From Minisyncoccota bacterium (GTDB lineage: Bacteria; Patescibacteriota; Minisyncoccia; Phycocordibacterales; BOKC01), in assembly GCA_030583745.1 (NCBI GenBank), contig CP129473.1, positions 442,783 through 506,782 of the forward strand: a stretch of DNA of 64,000 bases, in the 5' to 3' direction. The translations under genes were made by a program, and so were the position numbers. Of the stretch, positions 10,727-35,040 are shown one piece after another. A model generated the notes under the pieces. The model was given only the letters and a program-made list of their open reading frames with translations, ran no database searches and was not told the DNA's origin. The first letter of the stretch is position 1, and each line of letters begins with the position of its first letter.

Positions 10727-10870
10727 ATAACTCTAAAATTAGGGTTTGGGGTATGGGGGTTGGGGTTTAGGGTATGGGGAAATACAAAACTAAACGCTGA
10801 TCTTCTAGACCGCTCCAACCCAATTTACCTATACCCTATTGGCTGTCCCCTATTTGGCTGTCCCCTATTT
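10727..10870. repeat. Copies of a dispersed TTTAGGG/GGGTATGGGG repeat family in inverted arrangement
   Basis: ttagggtttggggtatgggggttggggtttagggtatgggg ... cctataccctattggctgtcccctatttggctgtcccctatt. Confidence 0.6.
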
Positions 10871-11706
10871 TAAAGATTTAATGAATACCGACTCCATCTT
10901 CGCTCCCCCTCTTTCTTGAGAATTCCACTTTTTACCATGAAGATTAGCTCCCTCTGAATGGTTTTTTCACTGCAGTCTTTTATATTATCAGAAATGTCTT
11001 TTATAGAAGCCGATTTTTTGTCTTTTATAATATCTAAAATCTTTATCTGCCTTTTATTTTTTCGCTCTTTGCCAAATTTTTCATCCTTGTCTTTACCTTG
11101 TCCTACGTGATTAATCTTGATTTCTTGATTTGACGCGCCATTATGTCCTTTATCGTAATTTAATTTATTTCTCTCATCAGTCTGACCCACATTGTCTTTT
11201 TCAAATTGTCCTATAAGCCCATGATTCTGGACGAAAAAGAAGTCGTTTGATAAACCGTTTTTACCCCCCAAATCACAACGCTCTAAATAGGAGTTAGCTA
11301 ATCCGGCCATCTTCTCAATCTCTTTTTTTAATATATCAAGATTCATTTGTGAAATAAGACCAGCAAAAAAAGAAGTTTCAAGGAAAGAATCAACTTTCAA
11401 AAGCTGATTCTCCCACTGATCCAACCAGCTTTTTTTGCCAACTTTGGCAATTGTAAATTTTGAAACTAAAGACAAATCAAGAAGCTCAAGAGAATTCTTT
11501 CTCAAAATGTCTTTAATCGGTTCTCTGTCATCAAAAAGACTTGTCAAAAGATAAACCGCCGAAACCAATCTTTCTGTCTTTTTATAAAAATAAGAAAAAT
11601 TATTGTCTTTTATAAACGAAACTACGTCCTTCACATATAAGCCCTTTAAATCAGCATTTTGAAGGTCGTTATTAGGGCTAAATTGTATTTGTCTTTTATC
11701 GTTCAT
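10870..11706 (-). CDS. Hypothetical protein with a C-terminal winged-helix (DeoR/ArsR-like) DNA-binding domain
   Basis: C-terminal KILDIIKDKKSASIKDISDNIKDCSEKTIQRELIFMVKSGILKKEG. Start set at the internal Met; the ORF is open to 11892. Confidence 0.45.
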   Translation of the reverse strand: MNDKRQIQFSPNNDLQNADLKGLYVKDVVSFIKDNNFSYFYKKTERLVSAVYLLTSLFDDREPIKDILRKNSLELLDLSLVSKFTIAKVGKKSWLDQWENQLLKVDSFLETSFFAGLISQMNLDILKKEIEKMAGLANSYLERCDLGGKNGLSNDFFFVQNHGLIGQFEKDNVGQTDERNKLNYDKGHNGASNQEIKINHVGQGKDKDEKFGKERKNKRQIKILDIIKDKKSASIKDISDNIKDCSEKTIQRELIFMVKSGILKKEGERRWSRYSLNL

Positions 11707-11945
11707 ATAGTGTCCTTTATTAATCCACCAGATTTTGTCTTTTATAAAAGTGTGGGAAACCTTAAAGGACAGTATATCCGTAAAAGACAGAAATATCAAT
11801 GACCCGGCGATACAATGTGTGGATTTTATTACGGGAAGAATAATGTCAGGAAATTTTGGAGAGTGATTGGAAAACCAAGATTTCAACCGCAAGGCAAATT
11901 AAAATTATGCTATCATTGTTTAATCAAGTAAGAAAAATAATTCAA

Positions 11946-33307: not shown

Positions 33308-34987
33308 TCACATCCTCTCCGGCACCTTTATACCTAAGAGATTAAGGCCGTTTGTAAGGGTGATAAGAAAAGCTGCGGTTAGGGCGATTTTGTAAGGAGA
33401 GTTTTGGTCGACGAGATCAACAATTTTTTCTTTGGCGTAAAAACTGTTGAACGCTCCGGACAGCTCGATCAAATATCCGACCAGCTTTTGCGGTGCAAAA
33501 TCTCTTGCCGCAACTTCTACCACGCTCGGAAATCTGTACAGCAGTTTTTCAACATCGTTCACATTCTCCCCTCCTCTTTTGACACCGGCTTTTACTTTTT
33601 CTGTTCGCGCTTTTTCCAAAACCGACTTCGCCCGCACAGCCGAATACTGCAAATATGGTCCGGAATCACCTTCAAATGAAAGTGATTTTTCAAAATCAAA
33701 GACAATGTTCCGGCCAAGAGCTTGTTTCAAAATTGAATATTTCAAAGCGGCCACCGCAATCTGATCAGCAACCTCTTCTTTCTTTTCGATTTGCCGATCT
33801 TTCATCTTTTCAAGCGCCATTTTTTTAAGTTCATTCAAAAGCCATTCGCCGGAAATGATACTGCCAGTCCTAGAAGACATCCGGCCTTCCGGCAGACGTA
33901 GACGGCCGTGCGAAAGATGCTCTATCTTGCCGTTTAAATCCGGAAAAACGAATTCGGCCGCCTTCATCACGACCTTGTAATATTCGGCTTGCTCAACATC
34001 GGTTACGGTAATTGACCGGTCAAATTTAAAAAATTTACGCTTGAGTTCAATCAGTCCCAAATCTTTGGCTTCGTATGTCGGCAGACCTTCTGAATTTATA
34101 AAAACTCGTGTGTGGAGACCGGATTTTTCTTCTGGGAAAATTATCGCGTTGTCACTTTTTTCAAAAATATCTGGATTTTTTTCAACCAATTTTTTACCTA
34201 TTTCTCCGGCTTGGCTTTCAAAAAAGTGACCGTCAAACCTACTTCCAAGTCGAGTATAAATTTCCTCAAAATGCTGTAGCGACAATTCTCGGCCTTTTTT
34301 GTAAATTTTATTTATTTCCGGATCAGATTCGTCGTAAATTTTTTTGTTTATTTCAACAATTTCTTTCTTGGCGACCTCATCACCTTCATAAGCCCTATCA
34401 CCTTCTGCATAAAACTTTCCGAGGTCGTGAATAGCTAATTGTGAATAGTCAAAGTTTTTATCAATAATTGCCCAAATCGCTTTAGCCACATGAAGCCCGA
34501 CATCGCCGTGATAAGTCACACATTTAAGCTTCGGAGCTTCGGCTTCGAGCAAACGTGAGACCGCCTCGCCAACAATGTTGTTTACTAAGTGGCCAATGTG
34601 AAATTCTTTAAAAGGATTCGGCTGGGTATGCTCAATTATTATTTTTTGGCCAGCCAAATTTTTATTCCTGCCCCACCTATCTCCTTCTTTTAAAATTTTC
34701 TTTATTTCCTCTACAAAAAATTCTTTTGCTAAATAAAAATTTATAAACCCCGGCCCAGCAATTTCAATTTTTTCAATTTCCTTAGGTTTTGACGCTATCA
34801 TATATGGTAGTAGTTTTTCGGCAATCTCACGCGGATTTTTATTCAAGTCTTTTGCATAAACCAAAGAAACATTTGAGGAAAAATCTCCATGAGAAATTTC
34901 AGCAGGATGCTCAAGCTCTATCCTTGGATCTTTAACCCCAAAACTTTCCAGAGCTCCTTTTATTAAATTTTCCAGCTTTTCTTTCAT
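33308..34987 (-). CDS. argS: Arginyl-tRNA synthetase
   Basis: QPNPFKEFHIGHLVNNIVGEA; C-terminal DALR/anticodon-binding; RMSSRTG. Confidence 0.9.
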   Translation of the reverse strand: MKEKLENLIKGALESFGVKDPRIELEHPAEISHGDFSSNVSLVYAKDLNKNPREIAEKLLPYMIASKPKEIEKIEIAGPGFINFYLAKEFFVEEIKKILKEGDRWGRNKNLAGQKIIIEHTQPNPFKEFHIGHLVNNIVGEAVSRLLEAEAPKLKCVTYHGDVGLHVAKAIWAIIDKNFDYSQLAIHDLGKFYAEGDRAYEGDEVAKKEIVEINKKIYDESDPEINKIYKKGRELSLQHFEEIYTRLGSRFDGHFFESQAGEIGKKLVEKNPDIFEKSDNAIIFPEEKSGLHTRVFINSEGLPTYEAKDLGLIELKRKFFKFDRSITVTDVEQAEYYKVVMKAAEFVFPDLNGKIEHLSHGRLRLPEGRMSSRTGSIISGEWLLNELKKMALEKMKDRQIEKKEEVADQIAVAALKYSILKQALGRNIVFDFEKSLSFEGDSGPYLQYSAVRAKSVLEKARTEKVKAGVKRGGENVNDVEKLLYRFPSVVEVAARDFAPQKLVGYLIELSGAFNSFYAKEKIVDLVDQNSPYKIALTAAFLITLTNGLNLLGIKVPERM

Positions 34988-34989
34988 TT

Positions 34990-35040
34990 GTATTTCCCTA
35001 AACCCTATTGGCTACACCCTATACCCTAGACCCTATTTCC
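34990..35040. repeat. Copy of the TAGGGT/CCAATAGG repeat family (cctaaaccctattggctacaccctataccctagaccctatttcc)
   Basis: Seen directly in the sequence. Confidence 0.6.

Follow-up and report, generated by a model that had tools for sequence, protein, structure and literature searches.

Introduction

Intervening sequences (IVSs) that carry an open reading frame (ORF) of the S23p/IVP family are known from the 23S rRNA genes of Leptospira, Coxiella burnetii, Brucella and Xanthomonas (PMC4990558). In Coxiella, two to three GACAGAT units precede the S23p ORF and vary between strains, RNase III cuts at the first repeat, and the IVS is excised from the precursor without re-ligation, which leaves a fragmented 23S rRNA; the ORF itself is under reductive evolution (PMC4990558). 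Here we describe arrays of TAG-phased heptamers, and the IVP gene cassette that such arrays flank, in a 64,000-nucleotide stretch of a Minisyncoccota genome (GenBank CP129473.1, positions 442,783 to 506,782 of the forward strand; hereafter the window). The G+C content of the window is 40.6%, its genes are compact and its 23S rRNA gene carries insertions; the closest relatives of its proteins are labelled Patescibacteria or candidate phyla radiation (CPR).

Tandem heptamers have also been described outside this context. The GGGAATC repeats of Xanthomonas and the GGGGAYT repeats of Nostoc are described as G-quadruplex formers; four units are preferred, with up to 26 in Xanthomonas, where 70-75 convergent inverted pairs occur and the repeats are intergenic and variable in length at conserved sites (PMC4692102). 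S23p is not mentioned in that work. STRR sequences, short repetitive stretches repeated in tandem, inside an RNase P gene are the subject of Vioque 1997, judging from its title as cited in PMC2858038. The recognition site of HutP comprises at least three UAG triplets with 4-nt spacers, in the motif UAGNNNNUAGNNNNUAG (PMC2425495).

The cassette resembles the S23p IVS in its PF05635/TIGR02436 cargo, in terminal inverted repeats that form a stem with the ORF in the loop, in the decay of the ORF and possibly, through the two rRNA insertions described below, in the use of apical loops of 23S helices; as in the Coxiella IVS, 5´ tandem heptamers vary in number between strains. In contrast to the S23p IVS, most copies lie outside rRNA, in the spacers of protein-coding operons, the arms are built wholly of heptamers in phase with the stop codon TAG, no ORF is present in the rRNA copies or at the five sites first noted in the window, and one of the rRNA sites is neither helix 25 nor helix 45.

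With the Xanthomonas and Nostoc heptamers, the arrays share the 7-nt unit, the number of four to five units, the over-representation in non-coding DNA, the position near stop codons or upstream on the antisense strand, the convergent pairs, and a variable length at a conserved position. The unit differs, however: its constant part is TAG rather than a G-run, and the potential to form a G-quadruplex is not general. Like STRR sequences, to go by the title cited above, they occur within a structured RNA gene (RNase P there, 23S rRNA here). Their form, (UAG N4)n, is identical to UAGNNNNUAGNNNNUAG, but the arrays hold 4-6 units rather than 3+3, are usually paired with a complementary arm and do not lie in the attenuator context of HutP and TRAP sites. 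No HutP homologue was noticed in searches that were not aimed at one. They are short, dispersed, intergenic, often palindromic and present in many copies per genome, as are repetitive extragenic palindromic (REP) sequences, bacterial interspersed mosaic elements and transposable elements of the miniature inverted-repeat type (MITEs), whereas their tandem heptamer build, the lack of a fixed palindrome and of an evident target-site duplication, and the non-transposase cargo set them apart from these.

Beyond the Coxiella heptamers, we found no account of a link between heptamers and IVP genes in the literature searchable without subscription, and searches for CPR heptamers, for TTTAGGG in CPR and for S23p together with STRR returned nothing relevant. 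The description best supported here is a system of IVS-type cassettes with TAG-phased heptamer arms and of their empty and half-site derivatives, which links S23p-bearing IVSs with heptameric STRR-like repeats, both already known kinds of sequence. In contrast to the published heptamer work, such a link was observed at 17 of 18 plasmid-borne IVP genes, those of Nostocales included. Three orphan observations appear to be one: the intergenic heptamer repeats (STRR, cited by 1997), the S23p IVS and a large family of four-helix-bundle proteins.

Results and discussion

A heptamer-armed IVP cassette lies between ssb and rpsR

A 113-aa gene on the minus strand (16907-17248), located between ssb and rpsR, encodes a four-helix-bundle protein of the 23S_rRNA_IVP/S23p family, which matches PF05635 (E=1.2e-39), TIGR02436 (E=4.3e-38) and PDB entry 2gsc (E=7.9e-25). 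Both sides of this gene are occupied by heptamer arrays. The 5´ arm (17264-17298, minus strand) reads TAGTCAG TAGAAGG TAGTGAG TAGTCTG TAGATTT, and its first TAG is the stop codon of ssb. The 3´ arm (16872-16906; inverted repeat I16) reads TAGTTGG TAGATTA TAGTCAG TAGTCAG TAGTAAG on the plus strand, that is, (N4CTA)5 on the transcribed minus strand. The two arms form the closing stem of a predicted 441-nt fold with a z-score of -3.6. A promoter-like sequence, TTGACT-17-TATAAT (11/12; 16910-16882, minus strand), which is the best in the interval of 10-19.5 kb, lies within the 3´ arm and faces rpsR; the insertion may carry, or may have evolved, a replacement promoter for rpsR.

Arrays flank IVP genes chosen without regard to repeats

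A protein alignment of the IVP family was used to fetch 80 metagenome loci, 74 of them distinct, and repeats were ignored in this choice. Nearly every IVP gene in the sample shows the same arrangement, 5´ (TAGN4)n, ORF, (N4CTA)n 3´. A strict regular expression recovers the upstream array at 49 loci, the downstream array at 51 and both at 42 of the 80, and the remainder mostly have mixed periods of 7 and 8 nt. In an unbiased 3-mer chain test of 70 cassettes, TAG at period 7 ranked first in both arms (40/70 and 45/70), and periods 5, 6 and 9 gave almost nothing. Arrays are 48-fold denser beside the IVP gene than elsewhere in the 74 loci (6.21/kb within ~120 nt vs 0.13/kb).

The bodies of the units differ between loci, but within a locus the two arms are complementary to each other. 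Duplexes of arms from one locus have an energy of -40.2 kcal/mol, compared with -29.0 kcal/mol when arms are combined across loci (72 cassettes; Mann-Whitney p=7e-13). The spacing of convergent pairs is bimodal, either below 100 nt (38 pairs with loops shorter than 80 nt) or 340-430 nt (36 pairs), with none at 600-1500 nt. All 36 pairs of the longer class enclose an IVP ORF, and no cargo other than IVP was found between array pairs. The same arrangement was observed at IVP genes in loci that had been picked by their repeats (L012, L013, L020 and L052, with arrays of the TAGGGTT/TAGCCAC type) and in L114 and L126. Four pairs are separated by 1.5-4 kb and look like chance neighbors; one of them is 31789/34994 in the window, which encloses a TrbC-like gene and argS.

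The cassettes fit closely into the junctions between genes. In 33 of 45 CPR cassettes, one of the first three TAGs, in 20 of them the very first, terminates a host ORF of at least 60 codons on the same strand. On the other side, the distance from the last CTA to the start of a same-strand host ORF is -1 to +27 nt in 35 of 42 (median ~4 nt). The 5´ array ends at a median of 26 nt before the start of the IVP protein match. Since 7 equals 1 modulo 3, three units give a stop in every frame, and the reverse complement of (TAGN4)n...(N4CTA)n has the same form, so that stops are supplied in all frames from either side. This fits an empty hairpin between the convergent genes efp and rpsR, which is described below. 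An earlier comparison with random positions, in which 35 of 96 arrays ended ORFs of at least 60 codons against 52% of controls, was replaced by this junction analysis because the control was dominated by coding DNA.

TAG-phased arrays occupy gene boundaries in the window

The preliminary description listed five sites in the window as a dispersed family of intergenic repeats with a plant-telomere-like TTTAGGG core. All five are real, each at or within a few bases of the position first given, and each comprises 4-6 in-phase heptamers TAGNNNN (TAGGGTT, TAGGGTA, TAGCCAA, TAGCCAC and others). The consensus proposed at that time, TAGGGTTTAGGGTATAGCCAATAGG, has an exact match at 18389-18413. A scan for at least three in-phase TAGN4 units found 28 runs (overlapping count) in the window vs 0.59 in 100 mononucleotide shuffles, of which the maximum was 3. 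An independent repeat search also places the copies together, in families D1 and D10 and in the inverted pairs I2, I3, I6, I7, I9 and I10, and all listed copies are intergenic; a dispersed family at gene boundaries with many inverted pairs is thus confirmed. Three further arrays had been overlooked, the two arms of the IVP cassette and one at 22791-22825 (plus strand). The first TAG is the stop codon of efp (16553-16555), rpsR (16662-16664), ssb and the dUTPase gene (35033-35035) in the respective arrays.

The likeness to plant telomeres proved incidental: TAG and the 7-nt period are conserved, and GGGTT is one of many bodies (others being TAGCTTG, TAGTCAG, TAGAAAA and TAGGCAC). A telomere function was rejected, given the many unit bodies and the internal, intergenic position of the arrays.

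Two of the sites are convergent pairs without an ORF. Between efp, identified by its EFP domains, and rpsR, identified by a Ribosomal_S18 domain in strain L006, the arm on the efp side (16553-16587, plus strand; TAGGGTC TAGAGTT TAGCCAA TAGGGTG TAGAAAT) is separated by 42 nt from the arm on the rpsR side (16630-16664, minus strand; TAGGGTT TAGGGTA TAGCCAC TAGCCAA TAGAGGA), and the flanking genes are convergent. This hairpin folds with z-scores of -2.3 on the plus strand and -4.6 on the minus strand. The second pair is degenerate. Its left arm (10740-10781, plus strand) reads TAGGGTT TGGGGTA TGGGGGT TGGGGTT TAGGGTA TGGGGAA; the partner array (10823-10868, minus strand; family D10) consists of TAGGGGA CAGCCAA[A] twice, followed by TAGGGTA TAGGTAA, and starts 4 nt past the TAA stop codon of a 340-aa gene (10870-11892).

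The other arrays stand alone. The array at 18382-18416 (plus strand; TAGGGTT TAGGGTT TAGGGTA TAGCCAA TAGGTTA) is antisense to the flanking minus-strand genes and lies upstream of rpsF, just beyond a canonical minus-strand terminator (18444-18423). The array at 31789-31823 (plus strand; TAGGGTA TAGGGTT TAGCCAC TAGGGTT TAGGAAA) is likewise antisense to the flanking genes, and the canonical terminator at 31855-31830 (minus strand) adjoins it. Its complementarity to 34988-35028 is 88% (I3), but the intervening 3.2 kb consist of ordinary genes. A sense array between dut and argS (34994-35035, minus strand) reads TAGGGTC TAGGGTA TAGGGTG TAGCCAA TAGGGTT TAGGGAA, and the ATG of argS (34987-34985) begins 7 nt past its last base, 34994, with six bases between them (34993-34988). 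The array at 22791-22825 is degenerate (TGGTGGC TAGTCAG TAGTGAG TGGTTTT TAGAAAA).

The preliminary description also suggested that the repeats may double as transcription terminators. The array hairpins miss the intrinsic-terminator consensus: a terminator scan of 10000-19500 and 31000-36000 called none of them, and canonical terminators adjoin the arrays instead. No Rfam family covers the arrays. In a broader version, which we consider quite improbable, the hairpins would be host-beneficial 3´-end structures of RNA, either bidirectional terminators or mRNA-stabilizing hairpins, and the link to IVP would be secondary. Many arrays do start at a stop codon or a few nucleotides from one, convergent pairs stand between convergent genes such as efp and rpsR and fold from both strands, and some empty hairpins hold a canonical terminator in the loop (L010). 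This proposal is opposed by the GC-rich, T-run terminators found beside solo arrays, by the lack of an orientation bias in tandem-gene spacers, where arrays are sense and antisense equally often, and by the TAG phasing, which terminators do not need. Moreover, termination would be harmful at most IVP cassettes, which stand within co-directional operons in which the next gene starts a median of ~4 nt past the arm.

Sequence inspection found at least four G3 tracts in some arrays of the window (34994-35035 and 10740-10781), and the subfamily noticed at first has GGG once per unit. Together with the heptamer unit, the four to five units, the intergenic position, the convergent pairs and the variable length at conserved sites, this recalls the simple-sequence repeats GGGAATC and GGGGAYT (PMC4692102) and an action through non-B DNA or RNA structure. 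Such a role is very improbable for the family, of which most unit types hold no G3 tract on inspection, so that four or more such tracts are not a family trait. Most arrays of the wider family are unable to form a G-quadruplex (TAGCTTG, TAGTCAG, TAGAAAA, TAGTTTG), GCC units break the G-tracts at 18382 and 31789, and the conserved part is TAG, not a G-run.

Two 23S rRNA insertions share the heptamer design

The 23S rRNA gene of the window contains two insertions, both on the minus strand. Insertion 1 (1625-1730) replaces ~5 nt by 115 nt in a hairpin loop of domain I, at positions ~285-290 of the Rfam large-subunit model. Insertion 2 (1190-1312) adds ~108 nt to another apical loop, that of a helix at model positions 573-600; in our reading of its flanking sequence, this is the helix-25 site classically used by IVSs. 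Both thus lie in apical loops, one of them outside helices 25 and 45, whereas the five sites noted first and most cassettes lie outside rRNA. Their folds are far better than those of shuffled sequences (z -4.3 for insertion 1 and -6.9 for insertion 2). The preliminary description regarded the TAGG-rich cores of the insertions as related, and this holds: they are homologous to each other and follow the TAG-heptamer plan with TAGGCNN units (arrays at 1232-1286 and 1648-1703). In each insertion a small hairpin is followed by a UAGGCNN/NNGCCUA hairpin and then by a second small hairpin. The flanking small hairpins are also common to both (GCATCACA...TGTGATG on the 5´ side and CATCGCGCTTNGCGTGATGCG on the 3´ side), which suggests that one composite three-hairpin element entered the rRNA twice.

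The family is widespread among CPR genomes

A 24-nt pattern, TAGGGTNTAGGGTNTAGCCAMTAG, matches four arrays of the window. In a collection of species-representative genomes, this core has 51 matches in 49 stretches of 31 assemblies, vs ~0.14 expected by our own calculation with uniform base frequencies; the family is thus not restricted to the window. The assemblies are labelled Paceibacteria/Parcubacteria, Harrisonbacteria, Kaiserbacteria, "Saccharibacteria" or Patescibacteria, with the exception of one labelled Gammaproteobacteria and two labelled "bacterium". None of the fetched core-bearing loci shares other DNA with the window. Viral contigs contain neither a match to the pattern nor a relative of the IVP protein and give no sign of a phage vehicle.

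The core-bearing loci and the window together comprise 406 kb, in which 96 arrays of at least four units were found. Only TAG and the period are constant; the units include TAGGGTT, TAGGGTA, TAGCCAC, TAGCCAA, TAGAAAA, TAGAGTT, TAGCGAC and TAGTCAG. Tandem Repeats Finder reports 229 matches of period 7 vs 59 of period 8 in these loci, and 22 short convergent pairs were observed. The orientation bias relative to genes that the preliminary description proposed to count is absent, with 28 arrays in sense and 28 in antisense in tandem-gene spacers. Many period-7 arrays lacking TAG were also observed in L007-L055 (GATTTCG, TGATTCT, GTCGTAA, AATTGCG, CTGGTCG), for example at 4248-4280 and 4505-4540 of L055, 3678-3708 of L050 and 4471-4510 of L007. 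Heptamer repeats are a general feature of these CPR genomes.

Array positions are stable among strains and the IVP ORF decays

Contigs that encode the ssb protein of the window were collected from three NCBI metagenome assemblies and several read-run assemblies. These contigs are 96-99.6% identical to the window over long stretches, and the comparison comprised seven strain variants of 97-99.6% identity. Every array is found at the same place in six near-identical strain contigs, and the number of units differs by multiples of 7 nt: the array at 18382 has 3 or 2 TAGGGTT units depending on the strain, the array at 10740 is 21 nt shorter in L006, and the array at 10823-10868 shows different duplications. 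The IVP ORF is broken in 4 of the 7 variants, by a frameshift (L002-L004) or a stop at codon 9 (L005), and L003 carries an extra insertion of 157 nt; the arms are unchanged. The inserted 157 nt in L003 (10774-10931, orthologous to window ~16987) are rich in hairpins and look like a separate miniature element. The arrays at 18382 and 22791 lie exactly where strain-specific segments begin, the latter at the edge of a strain-specific insertion; this coincidence counts for little, because variable segments start in spacers anyway.

Unit changes in multiples of 7 between strains and the many arrays that begin at a stop codon would be produced by replication slippage, with the arrays as neutral microsatellites seeded at TAG stop codons. 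The data already disfavor this explanation, which is scarcely credible. An ordered vocabulary, TAGGGTT TAGGGTA TAGCCAM, recurs in 31 assemblies with flanks unrelated to the window, array lengths stop abruptly at 5-6 units instead of following a geometric distribution, the two arms co-vary, and the arrays are concentrated 48-fold at one gene family.

Heptamer-armed IVP genes occur beyond CPR

A tblastn search of plasmids with the IVP protein of the window returned 27 records, mostly Nostocales. Eighteen plasmid IVP genes (cyanobacterial, Gemmatimonadota and Azospirillum) were inspected, and short arrays of tandem units, for the most part with period 7, flank 17 of them. The arrays are mostly inverted, except in Pseudanabaena (L138) and Gemmatirosa (L144), where both have the same orientation. 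The units pair with their complements as TAGGGAG/CTCCCTA, TAGGGTG/CACCCTA, GTCAGGA/TCCTGAC, GGCAGAA/TTCTGCC and GGGGAAA/TTTCCCC. When the flanks were compared with themselves, 11 of 36 reached a self-match of at least 0.85 at period 7, and none of 36 at periods 5, 6 and 9. The Azospirillum IVP locus has the units GACAGAG and GACGGAG, and its flanks suggest to us a 23S rRNA IVS at helix 45.

Plasmid IVP genes were observed within the operons nrdB/nrdA, cas6/cas4 and cas10/cmr3. In three cyanobacterial plasmids (L138, L140 and L146), heptamer-armed IVP genes lie within CRISPR-cas operons, and their presence there may explain the association with CRISPR that surveys have reported for the family. 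Related Nostoc plasmids (L149 compared with L151, L141 and L153) carry, in the same three-gene operon, cassettes with different arms (GTCAGGA vs GGGGAAA) in different spacers. Comparison of filled and empty sites places the insertion exactly between stop and start codons; the junctions are ambiguous and show no clear duplication.

These filled and empty sites bear on the proposal of a REP/MITE-type element, which as a non-autonomous DNA transposon would be mobilized in trans by a REP-associated tyrosine transposase (RAYT) or an insertion-sequence transposase. They are consistent with it, as are the dispersed, intergenic inverted-repeat structure in many genomes and contexts and the two homologous insertions in the 23S rRNA. 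We nevertheless give this mode of mobilization little credence. Neither the Nostoc filled sites nor, by eye, the CPR cassettes show a target-site duplication; the sole cargo found is a four-helix-bundle gene and not a transposase; the arms are variable tandem units and not a terminal inverted repeat of fixed sequence; the strains keep the copies at the same positions; and viral contigs gave no matches. Hallmarks of REP elements or transposons were not seen in passing, in searches that were not aimed at RAYT or transposase genes. Of the view of the preliminary description, a REP/MITE-type family that may double as terminators or insertion scaffolds, the dispersed, inverted and insertion-related character thus stands. 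The scaffold part comes close, in view of the PF05635-bearing cassette and the Nostoc sites. No copy has moved among the seven strain variants. The target-site duplications for which it recommended a test were not seen, and the view as a whole is partly right and partly wrong.

The number of units peaks at five

Exact in-phase unit counts at the IVP loci are 3 (37 arrays), 4 (38), 5 (52), 6 (7) and 7 (4); the loci found by pattern have 49 arrays of 5 units and 4 of 6. The peak at five with a sharp drop at six in CPR could indicate that the arrays are binding sites of a ring-shaped protein, most plausibly the IVP/S23p homopentamer itself, with one UAG, or single-stranded DNA TAG, per subunit. 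Binding would then control translation of the cassette, folding of the stem or mobility. The form of the arrays matches the HutP motif (PMC2425495), the Xanthomonas S23p is reported to be a homopentameric toroid (PMC4990558), and PDB entry 2gsc, which matches the window protein, has five chains. The 5´ array also lies over the leader of the IVP gene, and a ring protein would account for the half of the arrays that are solo, which a stem leaves unexplained.

Such a mode of recognition would resemble that of HutP and TRAP, and we consider it unlikely. Where arms are paired, the UAGs would be base-paired with CUA. Outside CPR, five units are exceeded: Nostoc L137 has at least 8, Pseudanabaena L138 has more than 15, and Xanthomonas arrays reach 26 (PMC4692102). 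The constant trinucleotide changes between phyla. In addition, the arrays persist unchanged in the four strains with a broken IVP gene. A more general form, of small but real probability, would have S23p/IVP proteins, of which the protein collection holds more than 8000 relatives, as ring-shaped nucleic-acid binders in which each pentamer reads five NAG-phased heptamers. Cyanobacterial STRR, the Xanthomonas GGGAATC repeats and the TAG arrays of CPR would then be cognate sites of a self-recognizing module that spreads through rRNA loops and operon spacers across phyla.

A probable IVS-type cassette and its proposed remnants

The repeats are probably the arms at the ends of a selfish cassette of the IVS type, along with derivatives of it that lack the ORF or retain only a half-site. 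This reading builds on what was observed: the architecture, arms that co-vary, IVP genes next to the arrays, insertion points at gene junctions, the decay of the ORF and the spread across phyla. The full element would comprise a 5´ arm of ~5 UAG N4 units, a short leader, the IVP/S23p gene and a 3´ arm of ~5 N4 CUA units. In the transcript, the arms would form a stem of ~35 bp, interrupted by periodic mismatches, from which the cargo is looped out; the S23p-bearing IVSs of 23S rRNA have this layout, and RNase III cuts their stem. Within compact CPR genomes, the element sits in rRNA helix loops and, more often, in the spacer of two co-directional genes, where the first UAG serves as the stop codon of the upstream gene and the AUG of the next gene follows the last CUA. 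Formation of the stem would bring the upstream stop and the downstream start together and could keep translational coupling. We infer that the RNA folds in this way in vivo, that RNase III cleaves it and that stop codons are under selection, and a mode of movement as a cassette is likewise deduced.

The cargo gene would then decay. What remains would be hairpins without cargo at 10740-10868 and 16553-16664, the hairpins in the rRNA, and the solo arrays at 18382, 22791, 31789 and 34994, after which the arrays would drift by gain and loss of units. Decay of the ORF, which recalls the Coxiella IVS and here leaves the arms unchanged, is what leads us to read the ORF-less hairpins and solo arrays as remains after cargo loss.

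Several observations weigh against the cassette reading. The IVP cargo is present in the cassette at 16872-17298, whereas the five sites noted first and both rRNA insertions lack an ORF; that the five sites derive from cassettes is deduced from the units and the architecture they have in common. For the 10740/10868 pair, the predicted fold does not surpass that of shuffled sequences (z -0.6/-0.8). In the 406 kb, 62 of 114 arrays lack a partner arm, strict or degenerate; for solo arrays, no degenerate partners were found, and they pair equally well with the DNA on either side, downstream or upstream (p=0.44). With about half of the arrays partnerless, the stem cannot be the whole story. Presence/absence polymorphism of arrays was not observed among the seven closely related CPR variants, so that mobility in CPR is deduced only from the diversity of contexts. 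The lack of visible target-site duplications, noted above, belongs here as well. Outside CPR, TAG is not the constant triplet (CAG in GTCAGGA and GGCAGAA; none in GGGGAAA), and the stop-codon role may be lineage-specific or incidental.

If the cassette reading is true, the "REP-like" repeats of CPR become markers of a cassette that is tolerated inside essential operons and rRNA, and a natural insertion supplies stops in all frames and keeps the stop and start codons of its neighbors adjacent. It would also offer concrete experiments on the role of S23p and an annotation rule for hundreds of small intergenic hairpins in CPR.

Other features of the window

A second repeat family common to CPR genomes was observed at 58019-58144, where two tandem 63-nt copies (97% identical; GGCGGACTTCGTCACGCC...) lie beside tRNA-Ser (58149-58235); similar GCGGACTTCGTC...GCCGAAG repeats occur at 2327-2376 of L041 and at 492-512 and 1252-1272 of L012. 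A 557-aa ORF (30093-31766, minus strand) resembles a class I tRNA synthetase, with a partial catalytic-domain profile and a C-terminal stretch like a histidine phosphatase, and may be a split or fused gene; a TTTGGAA x3.6 repeat (31090-31114) lies within it.

A 165-aa gene (18765-19262, minus strand), which has no Pfam or NCBIfam match, is the most divergent among the strains (78-90% identity vs 97-99% for its neighbors). Between this gene and the array at 18382 lies a possible small RNA gene (18420-18700, minus strand) that has no Rfam match. This candidate has a promoter-like TTGACA-17-TAGCAT with an upstream TG (18628-18600) and ends at the canonical terminator 18444-18423. Strain L001 has a different sequence with a similar layout at this site.

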